Below are positions 14,617 to 55,047 of a DNA stretch of 64,000 bases, piece after piece. Made by a program: the position numbers and the translations under genes. Within the stretch, counting starts at the first letter, position 1; each line of letters opens with the position of its first letter. The notes beneath the pieces are model-generated. The model did not search any database. It saw only the letters and a program-made list of their open reading frames with translations, and had not been told where the DNA came from. The DNA comes from Candidatus Woesearchaeota archaeon (GTDB lineage: Archaea > Nanobdellota > Nanobdellia > Pacearchaeales > GW2011-AR1), in contig CAYHPN010000001.1 in the NCBI GenBank assembly GCA_964358765.1, positions 91,182 through 155,181 of the forward strand. Reading direction: 5' to 3'.

Positions 14617-14703
14617 AAAATTATTTTATATTAAGGGTTTAAAAATATTCCTCATTGGGAGAAAAGTATATAAATGCCCATTTATTATATAAATTGCCCA
14701 AAA

Positions 14704-14937
14704 ATGAAAACGATATTAGCGGATGGTCGAGGAAGAATTACACTGGGAGAGAGGATTATAGCTGAGCATGGAAAGAAATTTATGATAGTTAGTTCTAAAA
14801 AACAAGTTATACTTGTTCCAATATCTAATGACCCATTAAAAAGATTAAGAGAATTAGCTAAAGGATCTGGAATACACAAGTATTCTGTTAGTGAATTAAA
14901 AACTATAGCAAGAAAACAAGCTGAAAAAGAGGTTTAA
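14704..14937 (+). CDS. vapB: AbrB/SpoVT-type antitoxin (VapB-like)
   Basis: GRGRITLGERIIAEHGKKFMIV is a swapped-hairpin AbrB motif. The track start at 14674 abuts the TATA-like GTATATAAA, so ATG 14704 is more plausible. Confidence 0.6.
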   Translation: MKTILADGRGRITLGERIIAEHGKKFMIVSSKKQVILVPISNDPLKRLRELAKGSGIHKYSVSELKTIARKQAEKEV

Positions 14938-14940
14938 AGT

Positions 14941-15309
14941 ATGTTTGCTGATAGTGATTTTATTCTTGCGTTGATTAAAAATACCGATTGGCTTAAAGAA
15001 AGTGCAGAAAATATACTGCTAAAAAATAAAGGTAAAATAACTACTTCTTTGTCTGTAATGATTGAATTAGCTTTGGTGCTCCCACGTTTTAATATTAATA
15101 TTCTAGAAACGTACGCTAATCTAAATGAGTTAATTAAAATTGATAAGAAAACTATTGAAATTTCTATGAAAGCAGCACTTTTTATCCAAGAATATAATTC
15201 AAATGTTTTTGATTCATTTCATGCTGCTTCATGCAAAGATGAAATTATAATTAGCTCCGATTCTGTTTATGATAAATTTGGAATTGAAAGATTGAAGTTA
15301 GGAAAGTAA
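14941..15309 (+). CDS. vapC: PIN-domain ribonuclease toxin (VapC-like)
   Basis: Acidic residues are placed as in PIN domains (FADSDF..., IELA, FDSFHAA, ISSDSVYD). Starts 3 nt after the vapB stop. Confidence 0.65.
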   Translation: MFADSDFILALIKNTDWLKESAENILLKNKGKITTSLSVMIELALVLPRFNINILETYANLNELIKIDKKTIEISMKAALFIQEYNSNVFDSFHAASCKDEIIISSDSVYDKFGIERLKLGK

Positions 15310-15314
15310 TTATT

Positions 15315-15578
15315 TTATTTGTTGTATCCTCTTACTGTGCAACGAGCTCTTATTTGCATTCTTCCAGACTTGGCCGATAAATCGCTTATACTTACCCCAT
15401 ATCTCATGAGTTTTCTTTCTTGAGTCCTATCAAATCCTTCAAATACTAAATCAAATCCTTCTCTCCTTAAGTATTTAGCTTGAGAAGGCAAACTATCAAA
15501 ATCATTAACACAAAAATCTACTACATCTCCATGCTCCAATTTATCAATATCAAAACGATAATTAATTTCTCTTTTCAT
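15315..15578 (-). CDS. hypothetical protein
   Basis: 87-aa ORF, no motif recognised. Confidence 0.4.
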   Translation of the reverse strand: MKREINYRFDIDKLEHGDVVDFCVNDFDSLPSQAKYLRREGFDLVFEGFDRTQERKLMRYGVSISDLSAKSGRMQIRARCTVRGYNK

Positions 15579-46542: not shown

Positions 46543-47240
46543 TATTTTTTATCTCCCGCTTTATGCTTTTTTGATTTAGATTCTTTTTTAACATCTTCTT
46601 TTGGATTTTCTAACTCTTGTGCAGAAATTCTCAGTCTTTCTTTTAAATCTTCATCTACAATTATCTGGTCGTGGATCTTTGCATTTGGGGGCAGTATTCT
46701 TATTTGAACTCCAACTACTCCAGGCATTGTAGTGGCCTGTGATTGCGCGCTAAGAACTACTTTGGCAGGGTCTCCTGTTTTCTTAAGATATCCTTGAGAA
46801 AATCTCCATCTTCTTGCTCTGTCACTTGGAAGCTTTCCAGATAATACAATCTCTGCACCTAGAGCGCCTGATTTCATAATTTGTTGAAGCATTTTATAGG
46901 CAATTACTTTGAATTTTAAAGAGCCCTGTCTTTCAAGCATCATAGCAATTTCATCTGCAACTAATTGTGCATCAAGCAAAGGTTGAATTATTTCTTCTAT
47001 CTTTATATGTGGATTGTCAAGATGAAAACGTTTTTTTAATACTGTTGTAAGCTCGTCAATCTTTTCTCCTCTCTTTCCTATGACTAAACCTGGTCTGCTA
47101 GTTGAAACAATTATTTTTTCTCCGACTGGAGTATATTCTATTGTAACATCGCTGACTTTAGCTTTACCTAATTCTTTCTTAATATATTCCCTGACTCCTA
47201 ATTCTTCTTTCTTAAATGTTACAAATTTTTTCTCATCCAT
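46542..47240 (-). CDS. rps3: ribosomal protein uS3
   Basis: KH domain (VSTSRPGLVIGKRGEKIDELT) and a C-terminal domain (GALGAEIVLSGKL...). Confidence 0.9.
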   Translation of the reverse strand: MDEKKFVTFKKEELGVREYIKKELGKAKVSDVTIEYTPVGEKIIVSTSRPGLVIGKRGEKIDELTTVLKKRFHLDNPHIKIEEIIQPLLDAQLVADEIAMMLERQGSLKFKVIAYKMLQQIMKSGALGAEIVLSGKLPSDRARRWRFSQGYLKKTGDPAKVVLSAQSQATTMPGVVGVQIRILPPNAKIHDQIIVDEDLKERLRISAQELENPKEDVKKESKSKKHKAGDKK

Positions 47241-47241
47241 T

Positions 47242-47868
47242 TTATTTTTTTGCTCCCATTTTGAATTCTTTAGCCTTTAAGATTACATTTGATCTCTTAG
47301 CTCTTTTTCCGCCGGCTCTTTGTGGTCTAGCCGCCCAACTTGTTGAACCGATATAAATTCTTGTTTTATCTAAATCCAATCCTGAAGAAATTACATTTCC
47401 CTTTAATCCTTTTAACAAGTTTATGAACTCTATTGATGCATTTATAGGGTATCTTCCTGACATCATACCTTTACCTTTTCTATGAGGAATTTCGCCTTTA
47501 AAAGGTATTGCCCTTTTGTAAGCAATAACTTCTCTAAGTTGAGAAATTGCAAGATCGATTGATTTATTTTTAATGAAACTACAAATAAACATTCCATGTT
47601 TTTTTGAGATATGCAAATTAGATCCGTATGCAACTGCTTCATATTTTTTAACTTTTGGTTTCTCGAGGGCTTTCTTGGCTTTGTCTTCTTTCTTTTCAGA
47701 TAGGGTTTCTTTTTTATCATCTGATTTTGCTGGGTGCTTATGCTCGACTTTAGCTTCTAGACTATGGGCGGGAACTACAGAATCTGATTTAGGTGCAGGG
47801 GTTTTTTCTTCGACTTTTGCATCTACTTTTTTTACTTTCTCTGCTTGTTTTTTTGTTTCTTCTGTCAT
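47242..47868 (-). CDS. rpl22: ribosomal protein uL22 with a ~75-aa K/E-rich N-terminal extension
   Basis: Core ...LHISKKHGMFICSFIKNKSIDLAISQLREVIAYKRAIPF... Start placed at ATG 47868, 1 nt after the uS19 stop. Confidence 0.8.
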   Translation of the reverse strand: MTEETKKQAEKVKKVDAKVEEKTPAPKSDSVVPAHSLEAKVEHKHPAKSDDKKETLSEKKEDKAKKALEKPKVKKYEAVAYGSNLHISKKHGMFICSFIKNKSIDLAISQLREVIAYKRAIPFKGEIPHRKGKGMMSGRYPINASIEFINLLKGLKGNVISSGLDLDKTRIYIGSTSWAARPQRAGGKRAKRSNVILKAKEFKMGAKK

Positions 47869-47869
47869 T

Positions 47870-48283
47870 TTACTTCTTCTGAGCTTTGGATCCTTTTGTT
47901 GCTCCAATACCTGCGCTTCCATGATTTACTTTACTTCTTGTCATTGCAAACTCTCCTAAACGGTGACCAATCATTTCATGAGTTATTGTAATATCTTGGA
48001 ACATTTTTCCGTTGTAGATTCCAATTGTTAGACCTACAAGCTTTGGAACTATAACTAAATCACGCAAGTGTGTTCTTATTTTTCTGCTTTTTGATGCCTG
48101 GCTTTCACAAAGTTTTACAAATTTTTCTATGACATCAAAATTTCTATTTATGGATCTTCTGCTTCTGGAAGGCATGAATTTTGCAGATTCTCTTACGTCT
48201 AAACCTTTTAGATAATCTAAAGGTTTGCCCCTGTAGATATATTCTTTGCTCTTTACTTCTACGTTTTGTTTTTCATCAGCCAT
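47870..48283 (-). CDS. rps19: ribosomal protein uS19
   Basis: ...RTHLRDLVIVPKLVGLTIGIYNGKMFQDITITHEMIGHRLGEFAMTR... Start placed at ATG 48283, 1 nt after the upstream stop, with a GGAG 12 nt upstream. Confidence 0.85.
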   Translation of the reverse strand: MADEKQNVEVKSKEYIYRGKPLDYLKGLDVRESAKFMPSRSRRSINRNFDVIEKFVKLCESQASKSRKIRTHLRDLVIVPKLVGLTIGIYNGKMFQDITITHEMIGHRLGEFAMTRSKVNHGSAGIGATKGSKAQKK

Positions 48284-48284
48284 T

Positions 48285-48641
48285 TTATATTTGTTCTCCT
48301 GATTGTTCTCTCGCTTCATTTAGCTCTTCTAATAATGCTACAGCTTCATCTCTTTCTTCTCTTGGAACAAAAGCGATTTTTGCATAATGTAACTGCCTAA
48401 GACTAAACTCTTGCTCTCCATTTGTAATCTGATCTTCACCAAACATACGAATTTTGACATGGAGTATTGTTAATAATCTAACACTTTGCAAAGAACCATT
48501 CAATCCAAATCTCAAGTTACCTTCAACATCCCCAAGATAAACATGAGGCACCATTGTCTCTCCAATAGCATATTCTCGTCCAACTACCAACTCTGGTCTT
48601 TTCCATTCAAATCCTTGATTAGATGTTTTTTCTTCAGTCAT
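48285..48641 (-). CDS. unassigned 118-aa protein inserted between uL2 and uS19
   Basis: ATG is 2 nt after the uL2 stop; stop is 1 nt before the uS19 ATG. No match to any ribosomal protein I recognise. Confidence 0.55.
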   Translation of the reverse strand: MTEEKTSNQGFEWKRPELVVGREYAIGETMVPHVYLGDVEGNLRFGLNGSLQSVRLLTILHVKIRMFGEDQITNGEQEFSLRQLHYAKIAFVPREERDEAVALLEELNEAREQSGEQI

Positions 48642-48643
48642 TT

Positions 48644-49339
48644 TTATTTTTTCCTCCCTGTTCTTCTAGGTCTTAAGTGTCCAACTTTCTTTCCTGGAGG
48701 AGCGTTTCTAACTGCAATCTTGGATTTAATTCTTTTACCTCTACCAGATCCGAAAGGATGATCTACTGCGTTAACTTTAACTGCGGAAGTTCTTGGCCAT
48801 AATTTGTTTCTAGCTTTCATTTTGTAATGTTTTTTACCTGCAGTTACAAATGGTTTTAATAATCTTCCGTCTCCAGCTATAACTCCTAGAGTTGCTCTGC
48901 AATTATCATTTAATGTGATTTCATTTTTATTAGGCATTAATATTATCGCAGAACTTTTCTCTTTTTTTACTAAAGTAGCAAAACTTCCTGAAGTTCTAAT
49001 CATTTTTCCCCCGTCGCCTGGATTTCTTTCTAAGTTGTAAATTTTAGATCCGAGTGGAATGCTTTTTAAGAATGAGATGTCTCCTTCTTTAGGCGTTTCG
49101 TTTCCAACTATAATTTTTTGTCCGACAAAAGAGCCAGTAAAAGCAGGAATATAAGAAATTTTATTATTTAAATTGAGTTTTAATAATGGGGCTGAGTGTG
49201 CTGCAGAATGAAAAATTCTGTCAATGTGAGCTTCTCCCGAAATTGATGGATATTTAATTGTGTATATGAAAGCTTTTTTTCTAACTTGATATGTTGGTCC
49301 GCCTTTACCCCTTGCCTGTTGAATTATGCTTTTTCCCAT
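48644..49339 (-). CDS. rpl2: ribosomal protein uL2
   Basis: ...GDGGKMIRTSGSFATLV... and VNAVDHPFGSGRGKR. Confidence 0.9.
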   Translation of the reverse strand: MGKSIIQQARGKGGPTYQVRKKAFIYTIKYPSISGEAHIDRIFHSAAHSAPLLKLNLNNKISYIPAFTGSFVGQKIIVGNETPKEGDISFLKSIPLGSKIYNLERNPGDGGKMIRTSGSFATLVKKEKSSAIILMPNKNEITLNDNCRATLGVIAGDGRLLKPFVTAGKKHYKMKARNKLWPRTSAVKVNAVDHPFGSGRGKRIKSKIAVRNAPPGKKVGHLRPRRTGRKK

Positions 49340-49340
49340 T

Positions 49341-49583
49341 TTAGATCATACCTAGTTTAGTTGCAATATCTATTGCAGGATTCTCCTTTTTAAGTTTAAC
49401 ATATGCTCTTTTTTGATTATGCCTGATAAGAGTTCTTACTGATTCAACCTTGACCTTGAATACAGTTTCAACTTCTTTTTTAATCTCATCTCTGCTTGCT
49501 TTTTTTTCTACTCCAAATAATAAAGTGTTATCTAAATCAATCATCTTTACTGCTTTTTCAGAGGATAATGGTTTAAGAATCAT
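49341..49583 (-). CDS. rpl23: ribosomal protein uL23
   Basis: ILKPLSSEKAVKMIDLDNTLLFGVEKKASRDEIKKEVETVFKVKVESVRTL. Confidence 0.85.
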   Translation of the reverse strand: MILKPLSSEKAVKMIDLDNTLLFGVEKKASRDEIKKEVETVFKVKVESVRTLIRHNQKRAYVKLKKENPAIDIATKLGMI

Positions 49584-50356
49584 TTTTTACTCCCTATGTG
49601 ATTTAATTCTGAAATTGCTTTTTCAGTAAACAAAGTCAATCTTCCTAATGGGTAAAGATCTGCGATTTCTAGATTTCTAATATTTCTAATTTCAAACCCG
49701 CTGAATGTTGCTTTTTCATCTTTGCCTGTTAAAATTAGAATTCCTGCATTTGATTTATATTTTCTTCCTCTCTTTTTCCCTTTTCCTGCTCGCACAACTT
49801 TATTTTTTAATGCTAACTCAATATTCTTTCCAAGAATTTTTTTTAATGTAGAAACGAGAGATTTTGTTTTTTGAGGTAATGAATCAATGATGAAAGGAGC
49901 GTGATCGAGAGTATGTAATGTTTCGTATCTTTTTTGTATAAGAGAAATAGAAGATGTAGCAGCAATACCAGAATTAATTGCCAAGGCAATTTCTTTTTTA
50001 TTTGTTTTTTTATCGGCGTAAATTCCAGTTGGAGGGAATGCTCTTCTTCCGCCTCTGGCAGAAGGCATGTTGGAAGCGACCCAATAGAAATTTGTTCCAC
50101 GTCTAGACATTGTTTTTCTTGGAACTCTTGAAATACCTTTTCCATAATGGCCTTTCCAGTCATGTCTTTTGTGGCTAATTTGATTATATCCTTGCTGCCT
50201 TATACCTGCACCGATTTTTGGAGAGTAGGGTTGAATTTTTTTAGATACTTCAAAGTGCTTCATTACAATGTCTTCTCTTATTGGAGAAGAAAATACTGAT
50301 GGTAAGTCTATTTGACCTTTCTTCTCGCCTGCTGAACTATATAATGTTGTTTTCAT
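49580..50356 (-). CDS. rpl4: ribosomal protein uL4
   Basis: ...QGYNQISHKRHDWKGHYGKGISRVPR... and position between uL3 and uL23. Confidence 0.85.
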   Translation of the reverse strand: MKTTLYSSAGEKKGQIDLPSVFSSPIREDIVMKHFEVSKKIQPYSPKIGAGIRQQGYNQISHKRHDWKGHYGKGISRVPRKTMSRRGTNFYWVASNMPSARGGRRAFPPTGIYADKKTNKKEIALAINSGIAATSSISLIQKRYETLHTLDHAPFIIDSLPQKTKSLVSTLKKILGKNIELALKNKVVRAGKGKKRGRKYKSNAGILILTGKDEKATFSGFEIRNIRNLEIADLYPLGRLTLFTEKAISELNHIGSKK

Positions 50357-50679
50357 AGTCCGAAACTCCTTAGATATGCGTGAGTTGTAATTTTTTTATC
50401 TTCATTATGAATAGTATCCGACATATAATATCCAGATATTAATTTCAACGCCCCGTTAGAAATCTTTAATTTATCACTCTGTGTTAAAAATACTTCTCTA
50501 GGCTGTCCACTTTCATATCTGCTTAATAATGTAAATTCATCATTATCGGATCTGTACATACATCCATCAGAAGTTGCAATGAACTCTCCAGGCTTTAAAT
50601 TATCTAAGTCATCTAAAGATCTTAAAATTACTACTTCCATTTTTCTCTCCATTGTTGTTTCTGATTCTCCTATTCCCAT
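50353..50679 (-). CDS. unassigned ~95-108-aa protein inserted between uL3 and uL4
   Basis: First ATG is 1 nt after the uL3 stop. Internal ATG 50640 is preceded by GGAGAG. Its stop overlaps the uL4 ATG (ATGA), and the uL4 GGAG lies inside its 3' end. Confidence 0.5.
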   Translation of the reverse strand: MGIGESETTMERKMEVVILRSLDDLDNLKPGEFIATSDGCMYRSDNDEFTLLSRYESGQPREVFLTQSDKLKISNGALKLISGYYMSDTIHNEDKKITTHAYLRSFGL

Positions 50680-50680
50680 A

Positions 50681-51619
50681 TTAATGCATTAACTCCTGAA
50701 ATTCATATTTTCTTTTAGTTTGTATTTTAGTAGGTCTGAATGCTGGAGTTAATAATATTTGTCTTTTTACTGGACCTTGAATAGAACCTTTGACAATTAA
50801 ATATGAAGTTTTTATATTTCCGTAATTTTTGAATCCTGTAATGGGGTTAACATTTTTATCTTTTACATTGCCTTTTGATAATATCATTAAATTATATATA
50901 ATTCTTGTAAATAGGCCGAACTGACCTGCTTGTGGGGCGTGGAAAGTAACTCTAGCCGGATGCCATGGAGCTAATGATCCAGGTCTTCTTACTCCTTTTT
51001 CTGTTTTGTGTTGTTTAAGGGCAATACCAAATCTTTTAACTGGGCCAACTAAACCTTTTCCTTTAGTTAGGCCTCTAGCGTCAATCATGTCAAATTTAAA
51101 ATCATCCACTGTAATTTCTTTATGTAAATGAGCTTTAACAAAAGCCAATTTATCTGGAGAGGAAATAGCAACTTCAACAATATCTGGTGTTTTTTTAATT
51201 GAAGTTTGTTTTGGAATAGAATAGATTATTACTCGAATATCATCATAACCCTCTGGAACGTGATCGAGATTTTTTGTTTGTTTAGGAACTTTAAGAATAC
51301 GTTTTAATTCTTTATCATTAGAAACAATGATTTCCTTCATGACTTGGCCATGTTTATAGAATCTTACTGAGAATATTTTCATATGAGGAACTTCGAGAAT
51401 TGTAACCGGAAGAACGATTTGCTTTCCTTGTGTCATAACTTTATCTGTTGAATCTTTAATTAATGCTGAAGACATTCCAGCCTTGTATGCAATAATACCT
51501 AAAAAACCTTCAGTCTTTGTATTAATAGTGCTCCAGTTAGGACTAGGGAGATACTTAGAAACTCTCTTTCTCGGATAAAATTGAAGACTTCCTCGTCTTG
51601 GTCTTGATAATTTTGACAT
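50681..51619 (-). CDS. rpl3: ribosomal protein uL3
   Basis: SRPRRGSLQFYPRKR...GIIAYKAGMS... and FHAPQAGQFG. Confidence 0.9.
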   Translation of the reverse strand: MSKLSRPRRGSLQFYPRKRVSKYLPSPNWSTINTKTEGFLGIIAYKAGMSSALIKDSTDKVMTQGKQIVLPVTILEVPHMKIFSVRFYKHGQVMKEIIVSNDKELKRILKVPKQTKNLDHVPEGYDDIRVIIYSIPKQTSIKKTPDIVEVAISSPDKLAFVKAHLHKEITVDDFKFDMIDARGLTKGKGLVGPVKRFGIALKQHKTEKGVRRPGSLAPWHPARVTFHAPQAGQFGLFTRIIYNLMILSKGNVKDKNVNPITGFKNYGNIKTSYLIVKGSIQGPVKRQILLTPAFRPTKIQTKRKYEFQELMH

Positions 51620-51728
51620 ACTTTAACATTGTTTGGCTCCAACTCCGTTGCCTATTTTAATTCTAAAAAACCTTTGAAGTTTTTTGGATTCTACTTTACT
51701 TTGAGAAAATTGGGGTTTTTAAATCTGG

Positions 51729-51736
51729 CGGTAGGA
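51729..51736. repeat. target-site duplication, left copy (CGGTAGGA)
   Basis: The 8 nt immediately outside the left terminal inverted repeat are identical to 55040-55047. Confidence 0.7.
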
Positions 51737-51762
51737 TGAGCTGTAAAGTAAACGTCACCTAA
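51737..51762. repeat. left terminal inverted repeat
   Basis: TGAGCTGTAAAGTAAACGTCACCTAA. The reverse complement of 55014-55039 is TGAGCTGTAAAGTTAACGACACCTAA. Confidence 0.75.
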
Positions 51763-51794
51763 GAATATTTAAATGCCTTGATATCTTAGTTTAG

Positions 51795-52163
51795 ATGGAT
51801 GATAAGAAAGTAGAACGTGTTTTTAAAAGGAAGTTTACTACAAAAAATGATGGAGAAAACGTAACATTAAGAGAGAATTTGCCATCTAAGGAAACAGATA
51901 TGGATGCTGAAGATGTAAAAAATAGAGACGACTTCATACTATTTCTAAAGAAACTAAATGCTGATTTTAATGATTGGTTGCAAAACGAAAAATCTGACAA
52001 TCCCATTATGTGGGATAGTAGTAGATGGGCACAGAAATTTACTGGAGATTTTTTAGAAGCAATGTCTGCTTGGATAGAAGGACATGACTATGGAAAAGGG
52101 AAAAAAGCTCTTAGCTGGAGAGAAATTGCTGAACTCTTTGACGGCGCAAGAGTTTATGAATAG
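51795..52163 (+). CDS. hypothetical acidic protein (transposon passenger)
   Basis: 122-aa ORF. TATA TATTTAAAT ends about 21 nt upstream. Convergent 10-nt overlap with the transposase 3' end. Confidence 0.5.
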   Translation: MDDKKVERVFKRKFTTKNDGENVTLRENLPSKETDMDAEDVKNRDDFILFLKKLNADFNDWLQNEKSDNPIMWDSSRWAQKFTGDFLEAMSAWIEGHDYGKGKKALSWREIAELFDGARVYE

Positions 52164-53017
52164 CCTGAAGAAAGCCTAATCAACCCTAACCATCTATTAT
52201 CGCCTAAGTTTAACTCTTGTCCTGCTCTATTACAAGGCACTTCGTCTATTGTTGTGTGGGCTTCTATGAAGTTATGTTGTATAGTTATAGCCATCATCAT
52301 TATTGGTGCAGACCAAAGAGCTTTCAAACCTCTAAAGTCATCTACTCTATCTTTTATCTTCATGAAAACAGTTTCTATCCGATAATTATGAACTTTTGTT
52401 TTACTATAATTTTGTATCTTATGTTCAACTGTTAAACCTTTTATTTTGTTAGAATAGAATAGCTTCTGAAATGCTCTAGGATAAAATACTCCTGCATCAG
52501 TTTGGATATATTTTGGCTTCCCTTTACTTATTGCCTTCTTTAGAAACTGCATTGCTTGATTAGGATTACCAGACAATGAATAATGAATGCCAGTGATTAA
52601 ACGAGTATCCCAATCAAGACAACACCAAAACCTATCGCCTCTACCTTCACAGTCTATTAGAGTTTCATCTGCATAAAAGCTATTTCCTAAATTGTAGCCT
52701 AACTTTTCAACAAATTTCTGAACTTTCAAAGAATATCTTCTTACCCAATCTAAAATAGTCATGTGACTAACCTTAGTGCCTAAATGCCTACTTAACTGGC
52801 TTTTCATTTTTCTACTTGAAAGATTAGAGATATACATATCAACAGACATAGTGATTATTTTCTCGTTGTTTCTCATTCTGTAAAATCCTAAGTCTTGCGT
52901 GAAGTATCTCTTGCAGTTTTTACAATAATGTTTTTGGATTTTACCCCTATTTTCTGTCTTTCTATATCCTTTCTTGTAGCTATTTATTCCCTTACAAAAT
53001 TTACATTTTATTTCCAT
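52154..53017 (-). CDS. IS6-family DDE transposase with an N-terminal zinc finger
   Basis: CKFCKG...CKNCKRYF zinc finger. DDE region YADETLIDCEG...WCCLDWDTRLITG...IQTDAGVFYPRAF...NYRIETVFMKIKDR...HNFIEAH follows the IS6 D-D-E pattern as I recall it. Confidence 0.8.
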   Translation of the reverse strand: MEIKCKFCKGINSYKKGYRKTENRGKIQKHYCKNCKRYFTQDLGFYRMRNNEKIITMSVDMYISNLSSRKMKSQLSRHLGTKVSHMTILDWVRRYSLKVQKFVEKLGYNLGNSFYADETLIDCEGRGDRFWCCLDWDTRLITGIHYSLSGNPNQAMQFLKKAISKGKPKYIQTDAGVFYPRAFQKLFYSNKIKGLTVEHKIQNYSKTKVHNYRIETVFMKIKDRVDDFRGLKALWSAPIMMMAITIQHNFIEAHTTIDEVPCNRAGQELNLGDNRWLGLIRLSSGYS

Positions 53018-53024
53018 GCTATAA

Positions 53025-53062
53025 TTCGGTTACCGAAGTATTTAAGCATTTCGGTGTCCGAA
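53025..53062 (-). promoter_or_regulatory. promoter-operator cassette copy A (transposase)
   Basis: TTCGGTTACCGAA - GTATTTAAGCAT - TTCGGTGTCCGAA: two TTCGG-N3-CCGAA palindromes flank a minus-strand TATA (CTTAAATA). The TATA ends 22 nt before the transposase ATG. Confidence 0.6.
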
Positions 53063-53081
53063 CATATAACTTACTAACTTA

Positions 53082-53156
53082 TACAATAATAGTAGGTTTT
53101 TTTAGAAAGATTTAAATAGTTTAAACCTACTATTATTGTAACTAATAGTAGGTTTT
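53082..53156 (+). promoter_or_regulatory. Fic gene promoter with an 18-bp perfect inverted repeat bracketing the TATA box, plus a third half-site
   Basis: TACAATAATAGTAGGTTT (53082-53099) and its exact complement AAACCTACTATTATTGTA (53123-53140) bracket TTTAAATA (53111-53118). TAATAGTAGGTTTT repeats directly at 53143-53156. Confidence 0.55.
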
Positions 53157-53162
53157 AGTAAC

Positions 53163-54521
53163 ATGAGAAGACCGAAATCACCCCCACAACAAAAAGAATT
53201 GCGAGAAATAGTCGGAGATAAAAAAAATCAATCGTTATTCGATTATATGGGTAATAAAGAGATTAACGCATTTATTAAAGAGATGAATAATAGATATTTG
53301 CATTGGGATGAATTTGTTTATAGAACCCCTCCAAATAATGCAGATAGGGAAATCGTATGGACTTTGATGAAGTTTAATAGAAATTCCGCTGCTAAAAAAA
53401 TTAAAATAAGTAATGAAGGAGAGTTTAGTTTCAAATTTAATTTGTTAGACAATATACAACAAAAGTTACATGAATTTGACATGAATTTAGGAGGAACTTT
53501 AGGGTCGGCACAGTTTATTCCACAAGAAGAAAAAAATAGATATCTGATAAATTCTATTATGGAAGAAGCGATTGCCTCTAGTCAATTAGAAGGGGCTTCT
53601 ACAACAAGGAAAGTAGCAAAAGAGATGTTAAGAACTGCGAGAAAACCAAAAAACAAATCTGAAAAAATGATTATGAATAATTATCTAACTGCTAAGATGA
53701 TAAAAGATTCGAATGTTAAAAAACTTACTCCTGAATTTATACTTGAAATACACAAAAGTATAACTAAAGATACTTTGGATGATAAGAGTTACGAAGGAAA
53801 GTTTAGAGACACCGACGATATTGTTGTAGTGGACGAATCTACTGGTGAAATTTCTTATCATCCGCCAAAGCATGAATTAATTAGCAAAGTAATTGAAGAA
53901 TTTTGTGACTTCGCTAATAAACCTAGCACTTATTTTATGCACCCAATAGTGAAAGCGTCTATTCTCCATTTTTTAATTGGCTATATTCACCCATTTGTCG
54001 ATGGAAATGGTAGAACGGCTAGGTCTCTTTTTTACTGGTATTTAACCAAAGAAGGATACTGGATAATTGAGTTTATGTCTATTTCTAGGATAATAATAAA
54101 ATCTCCATCTAAATATTCAAGAGCTTATCTCTATACAGAAACTGACGAAAACGATTTAACATATTTTCTCAACTATCAAATTAGAACAATAGATATAGCT
54201 TTACGAGAATTGAAAAATTACATCTCTAGAAAAATGAAGGAGAAAGAAACATTATTTAAAATTATAGATAAGATAGAGGGTCTTAACATTCGTCAAGCAA
54301 ATATGATTAAAATGCTTTATCAAGATGAAAGAAAAAGACTAACTATGAGGGAACTACAAGAAACATTTAACATAGTATATGAAACAGCCAGGAAAGACTT
54401 GTTAGATTTAGAGAATAGAGGTTTTATCGAAAGAAGATTAATTGGAAAACAAAAGCTAATCTTCATTCGTTCAAAGAAGTTTCATGACTTGATAAGTAAA
54501 CATCTAGAAAATATCGAGTAG
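53163..54521 (+). CDS. Fic/Fido-domain protein with a C-terminal winged-helix domain
   Basis: Canonical Fic motif HPFVDGNGRTARSL, with a wHTH-like tail (TMRELQETFNIVYETARKDLLDLENRGFIER). Confidence 0.85.
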   Translation: MRRPKSPPQQKELREIVGDKKNQSLFDYMGNKEINAFIKEMNNRYLHWDEFVYRTPPNNADREIVWTLMKFNRNSAAKKIKISNEGEFSFKFNLLDNIQQKLHEFDMNLGGTLGSAQFIPQEEKNRYLINSIMEEAIASSQLEGASTTRKVAKEMLRTARKPKNKSEKMIMNNYLTAKMIKDSNVKKLTPEFILEIHKSITKDTLDDKSYEGKFRDTDDIVVVDESTGEISYHPPKHELISKVIEEFCDFANKPSTYFMHPIVKASILHFLIGYIHPFVDGNGRTARSLFYWYLTKEGYWIIEFMSISRIIIKSPSKYSRAYLYTETDENDLTYFLNYQIRTIDIALRELKNYISRKMKEKETLFKIIDKIEGLNIRQANMIKMLYQDERKRLTMRELQETFNIVYETARKDLLDLENRGFIERRLIGKQKLIFIRSKKFHDLISKHLENIE

Positions 54522-54683
54522 TTATTTATCTTTTTCAATAATTATTTTGTTGTTTTCGAATTTTACATTTAACTCTTTACCCTCAAGTCTACTCTCTTCG
54601 ACAACTCTTTTAGGTAAATTAATCTTATATTTATAATAAATTGTTTCGCCAACTTTTTTATCCACCGCTTTCATAATCTTCAT
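54522..54683 (-). CDS. AbrB/SpoVT-like micro-protein (53 aa), not in ORF track
   Basis: MKIMKAVDKKVGETIYYKYKINLPKRVVEESRLEGKELNVKFENNKIIIEKDK has the ..i.LPK.vve...l..g.el.v..e...iii.k swapped-hairpin pattern. Driven by cassette copy B with identical 22-nt TATA-ATG spacing. Confidence 0.5.
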   Translation of the reverse strand: MKIMKAVDKKVGETIYYKYKINLPKRVVEESRLEGKELNVKFENNKIIIEKDK

Positions 54684-54690
54684 AAAAGGT

Positions 54691-54728
54691 TTAGGTTACC
54701 GAACTATTTAAGTTTATCGGTGTCCGAA
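54691..54728 (-). promoter_or_regulatory. promoter-operator cassette copy B (AbrB-like ORF)
   Basis: 33/38 identical to 53025-53062 in the same orientation (TTAGGTTACCGAA - CTATTTAAGTTT - ATCGGTGTCCGAA). Confidence 0.6.
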
Positions 54729-54965
54729 TCAATTCTTATACTCTTTTCGTGCTTTTAATCTTGCTTTTTCCTTAATAAACTCTTCTTTGTATAAGTTACC
54801 CTCATATTCTTTTAGTCCGCTTTTATTTAATTTTATCAACTTTCCCTTTCTATCTAATTCACTCTTGCAATAACCACAAGTCCAACCGCCCCATAAAATT
54901 TGTTTCATATTACTAGCAATTCTAAAGAAAGGTAACGGTTGTTTACAAACAGGGCAATTTACCAT
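54729..54965 (-). CDS. zinc-ribbon protein (transposon passenger)
   Basis: CPVCKQ...CGYCKS pair of Cys knuckles. TATA AATTTAAATA lies about 21 nt upstream. Confidence 0.5.
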   Translation of the reverse strand: MVNCPVCKQPLPFFRIASNMKQILWGGWTCGYCKSELDRKGKLIKLNKSGLKEYEGNLYKEEFIKEKARLKARKEYKN

Positions 54966-55013
54966 CTCAACTTTAAGAAAAGCCCATATTTAAATTTCAC
55001 TCAAAGAGCTTAA

Positions 55014-55039
55014 TTAGGTGTCGTTAACTTTACAGCTCA
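55014..55039. repeat. right terminal inverted repeat
   Basis: TTAGGTGTCGTTAACTTTACAGCTCA, the inverted partner of 51737-51762 (24/26). Confidence 0.75.
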
Positions 55040-55047
55040 CGGTAGGA
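55040..55047. repeat. target-site duplication, right copy (CGGTAGGA)
   Basis: Immediately outside the right terminal inverted repeat and identical to 51729-51736. Confidence 0.7.

Follow-up and report, generated by a model that had tools for sequence, protein, structure and literature searches.

What kind of gene can settle between uL3 and uL4, inside a ribosomal protein operon whose order is widely taken as invariant? The uL3-uL4-uL23-uL2-uS19-uL22-uS3 block serves as a syntenic marker, and its ribosomal protein genes have been concatenated for DPANN phylogeny and used as a syntenic block (PMC8204110). The DNA analysed here is a stretch of 64,000 nucleotides (nt) from a Candidatus Woesearchaeota archaeon (GenBank assembly GCA_964358765.1, contig CAYHPN010000001.1, positions 91,182 to 155,181), hereafter called the window. 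On its minus strand lies an operon with the order uL3, an unassigned open reading frame (ORF), uL4, uL23, uL2, a second ORF (48285-48641), uS19 and uL22, the ribosomal proteins being confirmed by Pfam. For the ORF between uL3 and uL4, we put the probability at roughly 65% that it is, as its sequence and its relatives suggest, an accessory passenger cistron without a promoter of its own, coupled in translation to its neighbours and predicted to encode a small, non-enzymatic binding protein that is dispensable in the lineage and is not a structural ribosomal protein.

The initial annotation, made from the letters of the sequence, had described an ORF of 95-108 amino acids (aa) that fills the uL3/uL4 junction, with its first ATG 1 nt after the uL3 stop, an internal ATG behind its own GGAGAG, an ATGA overlap onto uL4 and the uL4 Shine-Dalgarno (SD) sequence inside the ORF, and every one of these details proved to be exact (Table 1). 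The locus is not an assembly artefact, because a metagenome contig from a separate sample (L170) has the same uL3-ORF-uL4 order and differs at 1 base in 1143 nt. This single substitution, R61I, is powerless for estimating the ratio of nonsynonymous to synonymous substitution rates (dN/dS, omega). Judged by its sequence, the ORF is a genuine protein-coding gene.

Much of the case for this gene comes from its relatives. A word-indexed search returned a single match, a 99% identical copy, and an exhaustive phmmer search of 1.8 billion representatives returned two true homologues, P0002 (110 aa) and P0006 (128 aa), the genes of which lie each between uL3 and uL4 on their own contig. A six-frame search of related genomes added members at the same junction in G010 (one) and in G018 (three in tandem, of which G018b alone groups with the subfamily of the window ORF). 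The comparison across relatives that the initial annotation had proposed thus finds homologues at uL3/uL4 in all four of these sources, and together with the window ORF they align over their full length (alignment A1). The upstream start of the window ORF is favoured over Met14, because P0002 and P0006 have no methionine there and both share the N-terminal 'T..RK' stretch; G018b and G010 start exactly at the domain in the same alignment. Profile searches extend the membership to numerous genera within the same GTDB family and, beyond it, to no fewer than nine further families of its class; none was found outside the class in a 401-genome sample of the phylum. About 60 homologues are known in all, from relatives deposited as Ca. 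Woesearchaeota, Pacearchaeota or Nanoarchaeota metagenome-assembled genomes (MAGs), with groundwater as the source; they measure ~95-135 aa and are beta-rich with a C-terminal helix. An alignment of 33 sequences (A3) defines the family by an N-terminal motif, (I/L)x(S/N)xE(D/E)LDxLxxG(D/E)(V/I)(V/I), a beta-rich core with a conserved aromatic residue and an 'nG.L' strand, and a C-terminal helix that ends in L(L/K)xxxGL. The window ORF carries the corresponding segments …LRSLDDLDNLKPGEFIAT…, …ISNGALKL… and …AYLRSFGL, and matches the profiles with E = 6.8e-16 to 2.5e-36. Its own subfamily has five members only among 5.8 billion protein clusters, and single-protein scans of genome and metagenome contig collections gave no close relative. 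As delimited by these alignments, the family is new and undescribed, a set of fast-evolving, soluble small proteins confined to one DPANN class, and no description of it was found in the literature.

How the gene is accommodated can be read from related junctions that lack it. Among the 19 genomes of the same genus with uL3 and uL4 on one contig, 9 junctions are empty, 4 hold a member of this family and 6 hold other ORFs (71-104 aa). Across the class the family is present in 16 of 401 sampled genomes (~4%, one false eL32 match having been removed), and G009, which is 95% complete, gives no family match anywhere in its genome. The inference drawn in the initial annotation, from obligatory co-expression with ribosomal proteins to a lineage-specific ribosome-associated factor, finds no support in these numbers. 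At the empty junctions uL4 is served by a GGAG ~8 nt upstream of its ATG(A), contained in the conserved final codons of uL3 (…EFLE…). At all the filled junctions of the genus, the ATG of the insert takes the place of that of uL4, and a new SD-like purine run appears in the last codons of the insert. In the window the ORF has AGGAG-N13-ATG at its 5' end, and at its 3' end AAGGAG-N9-ATGA. The recurrent C-terminal E-x-G-L, with the codons GAGGnAGGATTA(TGA), is in part a consequence of the SD constraint, because unrelated inserts carry it too, and it is also a feature of the protein, because stand-alone members keep …AGL(R/K). In P0006 (L030 4001-4387) the last 11 codons are exactly duplicated in tandem (ATRYLESLGLG ATRYLESLGLG GTR), including the SD-like region before uL4.

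From these features a course of events may be proposed. Ribosomes ending uL3 at TAA would restart 1 nt further on by way of the GGAG in the last uL3 codons; the insert would bring a replacement SD sequence (AAGGAG) and the ATGA, and the translation of uL4 would then hinge on that of the insert. Imprecise loss of the insert would strand uL4 without an SD sequence, so that the insert would tend to persist. Members would have been repeatedly duplicated and relocated among stop/start junctions of tightly coupled operons with the highest expression, in the 5' half of the ribosomal protein operon and between groES and groEL, as well as to stand-alone sites, and the product would be made in amounts like those of ribosomal proteins.

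The positions of the members were determined at all fetched loci with a hidden Markov model built from A3 and with tblastn of neighbouring genes. The uL3/uL4 junction is occupied in the window genome, G010, G018 (three copies), G020, G163, G169, G137 and the P0002 and P0006 contigs; uL4/uL23 in G111; uL23/uL2 in at least 15 genomes, including G007, G014 and G020 of the same genus; uL2/uS19 in G403, G410, G169, G173, G020 and others; uS19/uL22 in G134; and uL22/uS3 in G157 and G028. About two-thirds of the family instances fall within the uL3-uS3 block. Outside it, members stand between groES and groEL on contig C19 of the window genome (two in tandem, separated from the adjacent genes by 1 nt and 6 nt) and in G169, G137, G163 and G272, four other genomes that belong to two genera (g60 and g111). 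Some 14 further members occur in other contexts, in part stand-alone; examples directly follow a SurA-like peptidyl-prolyl isomerase (PPIase), have a cyclophilin nearby, come after an ABCE1-like ABC ATPase or precede Spt4-eS24. Copies per genome range from zero to four, with four in the window genome and in G169 and three in one operon of G020. The fit to the neighbouring genes is tight: the upstream spacing of members residing in such slots is +1 nt or -4 (ATGA) in 26 of 38 cases, +1 nt being the commonest (18 of 38), and the downstream spacing takes these same two values in 23 of 34, with the -4 overlap in 8. Downstream gaps are all ≤9 nt, and the upstream ones run from -41 to +4 nt.

Table 1. 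Positions of the ORF, its junctions and its paralogues in the window genome (window coordinates unless a contig or locus is given)
Feature	Position	Strand	Details
ORF	50353-50679	minus	108 aa from first ATG, 95 aa from Met14; from ORF listing and family alignments
uL3	50681-51619	minus	Pfam Ribosomal_L3 PF00297, E 8.9e-47; upstream neighbour and first gene of the operon
uL4	49580-50356	minus	Pfam Ribosomal_L4 PF00573, E 8.2e-15; downstream neighbour
Upstream junction	50677-50683	minus	uL3 stop TAA 50683-50681, spacer base 50680, ORF ATG 50679-50677
AGGAG in last uL3 codons (…EFQELMH)	50693-50697	minus	13 nt 5' of the first ATG of the ORF
Internal starts	50638-50652	minus	Met10 ATG 50652-50650; Met14 ATG 50640-50638 behind GGAGAG (50650-50645) and AAAA
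uL4 SD sequence AAGGAG	50366-50371	minus	inside ORF codons (…L-R-S…), 9 nt before uL4 ATG
ATGA overlap	50353-50356	minus	ORF stop TGA 50355-50353 on uL4 ATG 50356-50354
Tandem 115-aa paralogues	contig C19:14440-14787, 14796-15143 (locus L071 941-1288, 1297-1644)		between groES (Cpn10) and bacterial-type groEL (Cpn60)
Stand-alone 87-aa paralogue	15315-15578	minus	without the C-terminal helix; E 6e-4 with first profile, 5.8e-14 with A3

The stand-alone paralogue in the window is convergent with a PIN-domain gene (14941-15309, Pfam) on the opposite strand. This PIN gene follows a small ORF, 14674-14937, of AbrB-like appearance and without a Pfam match. At the head of the ribosomal protein operon, the region 51729-55047, with ORFs of 287 aa and 452 aa, lies ~110 nt from the uL3 start at 51619.

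The family is one of several kinds of insert in these operons. A survey of ~56 Pacearchaeota/Woesearchaeota operons for ORFs of ≥50 aa in the uL3-uS3 block counted 76 inserted ORFs, 21 of them from this family: 8 of the 22 at uL3/uL4, none of the 17 at uL4/uL23, 10 of the 23 at uL23/uL2, 3 of the 9 at uL2/uS19, and neither any of the 4 at uS19/uL22 nor the single one at uL22/uS3. No insert at uL3/uL4 was present in the outgroup archaea surveyed (Methanosarcinales, Aenigmatarchaeota, Iainarchaeota, Micrarchaeota and Thermoproteota), and three divergent outgroup loci (L162, L163 and L166) have ORFs at other junctions. An unrelated family of 126-138 aa ('…IDWEKAKEY…PPRL…') occupies uL3/uL4 in other genera (beginning at L131 4448, L143 1140 and L160 1353). 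Short helical ORFs of 77-95 aa are found there in G019, G007, G004 and L126. This one junction hosts at least three unrelated gene families, because the family of the window ORF, the 126-138-aa family and the short helical ORFs all occupy it.

Other passengers of the block are larger. At least eight related MAGs have, at the uL4/uL23 junction, a gene for an RNase_T/DnaQ-like 3'-5' exonuclease of 197-217 aa (Pfam PF00929, E 2e-14) that overlaps uL23 as ATGA (L059 670-1263, L100, L101, L102, L107, L110, L122 and L123; L165 has a 52-aa remnant). Inspection by eye also suggests an HD-domain-like hydrolase of 195 aa at uL23/uL2 (from L110 3600), a Nudix-like protein of 128 aa at uL4/uL23 (from L123 5227) and a Toprim-like protein of 143 aa (from L166 5196). 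The second ORF of the window operon (48285-48641, minus strand) encodes an acidic product of 118 aa between uL2 and uS19, with a 35-nt overlap onto the uS19 start. It was considered as a relative of the family and is unrelated (nothing by BLASTP; hhalign probability 0.1%). Its short motif 'ELxVGREY' recurs in a 115-aa ORF that another MAG has between the same two genes (L098; pairwise E 0.003).

Such turnover raises the question of whether the family moves on its own account, as a selfish or semi-selfish promoterless ORF that enters stop/start junctions of conserved, strongly expressed operons and passes from one to another with little benefit to the host, the route being recombination through the conserved flanking genes or SD-ATG(A) microhomology. 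Its patchy presence and variable copy number would fit this explanation, as would the tandem arrays (three copies in G018, two in the groESL operon of the window genome), the seamless +1/-4 joints at both ends, the crowd of unrelated ORFs that share the same junctions in this clade and are missing from uL3/uL4 in most outgroups, and an evolution that is very fast relative to the flanking genes. A maximum-likelihood tree of 50 members contains at least three well-supported junction changes; for example, copy b from the groES/groEL junction of the window genome groups with uL3/uL4 copies of genus g60 (98/95). The same tree is very deep, its terminal branches having a median length of 1.5 substitutions per site, and its slot labels are clustered above chance, requiring 24 changes against 31.8 after shuffling, with no such low value in 200 shuffles. 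The window ORF belongs to a clade (95/93) with P0002, G010, P0006 and G018b, all of them at uL3/uL4, so that its own subfamily is faithful to the junction and the tree is compatible with vertical descent. Also against self-driven movement, no near-identical copies occur across junctions or genomes and the paralogues are deeply diverged, which leaves recent movement undocumented; the window locus has no recombinase, terminal repeat or target duplication; and protein motifs conserved throughout the class imply selection on the product. In the interval 50250-50800, examined at this locus, neither an attC-like imperfect inverted repeat nor terminal direct repeats nor inverted repeats at the boundaries are present, and no integrase was seen in the ribosomal protein operon of the window. 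Recognition as a known mobile or selfish gene, which the initial annotation had named as an outcome that would count against it, did not occur either, as neither profile nor structure searches matched such a family. We therefore regard self-driven exchange as doubtful. Similarly tentative is the bolder conclusion that the family represents a novel class of mobile element, an ORF cassette without promoter or recombinase that targets stop/start junctions of the best conserved and most strongly expressed operons (ribosomal protein and groESL), keeps them coupled with its own SD sequence and ATGA, and spreads through recombination in the conserved flanks. If it were true, the ribosomal protein operon of Pacearchaeota and Woesearchaeota would be a receiving site in which new small proteins can arise.

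Does the product instead serve the ribosome? The explanation offered by the initial annotation can be made more specific as a lineage-specific ribosome-associated factor, e.g., an acidic escort or assembly chaperone for uL3 or uL4 that is made in cis and in matching amounts. The constant uL3/uL4 position of the own subfamily, the large share of instances beside ribosomal proteins in the uL3-uS3 block and the occurrence of other members beside chaperonin, PPIase and ABCE1-like genes would agree with it, and so would the charge of the product, since the ORF has an isoelectric point (pI) of 4.95 (family median 5.6) and uL3, uL4, uL23, uL2, uS19 and uL22 lie at 9.8-10.8. The distribution of the family speaks against such a factor, which would be dispensable within the genus, rare across the class and variable in junction and copy number, with copies at groES-groEL and others standing alone in unrelated neighbourhoods. 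The acidic to neutral character is not general either, about a third of the members being basic, and no similarity to any ribosomal protein or known chaperone fold exists. Finally, in comparison with contig L029, uL3 is 88% identical (dN 0.07, dS 0.89) and the ORF 36% identical (dN 0.69), so that it evolves ~10 times faster than its supposed partner. Taken together, these observations weaken the proposal further and make a dedicated ribosome factor quite improbable. A stoichiometric ribosomal protein is likewise unlikely on the sequence evidence, because the gene is dispensable, its junction and copy number vary, and its product is acidic and fast-evolving.

The reading that we prefer, an accessory passenger cistron for a small binding protein, leaves room for a looser connection with protein synthesis. 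Under some conditions its product may assist the synthesis or folding of proteins, for instance by shielding new basic ribosomal proteins or other clients. This is speculative and, in our estimate, a good deal less probable than its opposite; the guess is made because the neighbourhoods include ribosomal protein, chaperonin, PPIase and ABCE1-like genes and because an acidic product lies beside very basic proteins. GroEL/ES have been documented in Woesearchaeota and Pacearchaeota (PMC8204110). An obligate link to GroEL was considered and rejected: GroEL is encoded in 42 of 401 class genomes and in 5 of the 16 family-positive ones, a mild enrichment without dependence, as the other 11 lack it.

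AlphaFold2 with A3 yields a model with a predicted local distance difference test score (pLDDT) of 78.8 and a predicted template modelling score (pTM) of 0.62; with only seven sequences the pLDDT is 60.8, and it rises with the deeper alignment. In the model, residues 22-26 and 96-105 form helices, and seven strands lie between residues 33 and 89. The ORF has no Pfam match, in agreement with the initial annotation, which had seen in it no likeness to a known ribosomal protein, and known ribosomal or operon-resident families (Ribosomal_*, SUI1, Rpp29) do not match it; the members share no Pfam or NCBIfam family, and PHROGs, PADLOC and PDB sequences returned nothing consistent. Toxin-antitoxin and defence models (PADLOC) gave one stray match to one member (E 0.021), and the neighbours of the locus are uL3 and uL4. 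The best Foldseek matches were unusable, both in PDB (E 0.97, template modelling score, TM, <0.3) and in BFVD (E 0.059, TM 0.36, uncharacterised phage proteins). Kinship with eL32 was also rejected: weak profile matches (L049 and L087) fall on the C-terminal part of eL32, and A3 against the eL32 of the genome has an hhalign probability of 0.4%. As for an RNA element, Rfam has no match in 47000-52000. An enzyme is unlikely, because a single glycine, Gly31, is the only near-invariant residue in A3, which contains no invariant acidic or histidine residue. Signatures of homing endonucleases (GIY-YIG, HNH, LAGLIDADG and PD-(D/E)xK) are absent in Pfam and PHROGs searches.

The rate of change also invites a more sceptical explanation, in which the ORF would be non-functional, either an open frame that arose by chance or a remnant in decay, kept open only as a bridge for translation from uL3 to uL4. 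Omega is below 1 in all of eight pairs (0.2-0.7, with dS near saturation), and about a third of the ORF positions appear constrained. In the closest pairs it reaches ~0.6-0.7, which would suit a remnant, as would C-terminal '…E-x-G-L' codons that double as a Shine-Dalgarno sequence and recur in unrelated inserts. A mere bridge would hardly retain full-length motifs and the hydrophobic strand pattern across many families and in stand-alone copies that bridge nothing, nor would it be expected to give profile E-values down to 1e-25 or a model confident in its core. We consider this explanation very improbable.

Several points weigh against the accessory-cistron reading all the same. No RNA runs contain the locus, which was matched in groundwater DNA metagenomes only. 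Since the own subfamily was found at uL3/uL4 and nowhere else, a uL3- or uL4-linked role is possible there, and its omega of 0.6-0.7, with dS near saturation, could mean a very weak function. About a third of the family is basic, the fold prediction is moderate in confidence, and the enrichment of translation and folding neighbours may simply follow from the very high expression of these operons.

These considerations leave a testable candidate, either for a new DPANN translation or folding accessory factor or for a new type of junction-targeting gene cassette. A block that is trusted for its synteny is repeatedly broken by one definable family in one DPANN class, and the groES-groEL pair with it, which is a warning for annotators and binning pipelines that such junctions are not empty. 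With ~60 members and a usable structure model, the family offers a tractable case of how new genes are expressed in tiny, promoter-poor genomes, apparently via borrowed translational coupling.

The presence of non-ribosomal genes within a ribosomal protein operon, and their co-transcription with it, is in itself familiar from the residents of the archaeal S10/spc operons (aIF1/SUI1, Rpp29, SecY and adenylate kinase), and in fact SUI1 lies between uL29 and uS17 in L030 and L031, of the same operon family. These residents are ancient, near-universal and fixed in position, with known functions, whereas the family described here is restricted to one class, patchy, variable in junction and copy number, and without a Pfam family or known fold. 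Eukaryotes possess dedicated ribosomal protein chaperones, such as Rrb1 for uL3, Acl4 for uL4 and Yar1 for uS3, which are built from WD40, TPR or ankyrin repeats and are conserved and important for growth. They are acidic, non-ribosomal proteins that meet a specific basic ribosomal protein during its synthesis, and adjacency to uL3 and uL4 would give the same arrangement in cis. Our family, however, resembles them in neither sequence nor fold; its members are small and rich in beta-strands, vary in charge and are dispensable. Similar behaviour is known from phage morons and free-standing homing-endonuclease genes, which are sporadic, precise inserts between conserved genes with possible homology arms and quick turnover, but the present family resides in a cellular operon, without a nuclease domain and without the promoter and terminator that morons carry. 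Integron cassettes are likewise promoterless single-ORF units, variable in number and content and expressed from upstream at a defined landing place. There, one attI and the Pc promoter provide for capture and expression, whereas the members of this family are spread over many junctions and appear to depend on translational coupling to their neighbours.

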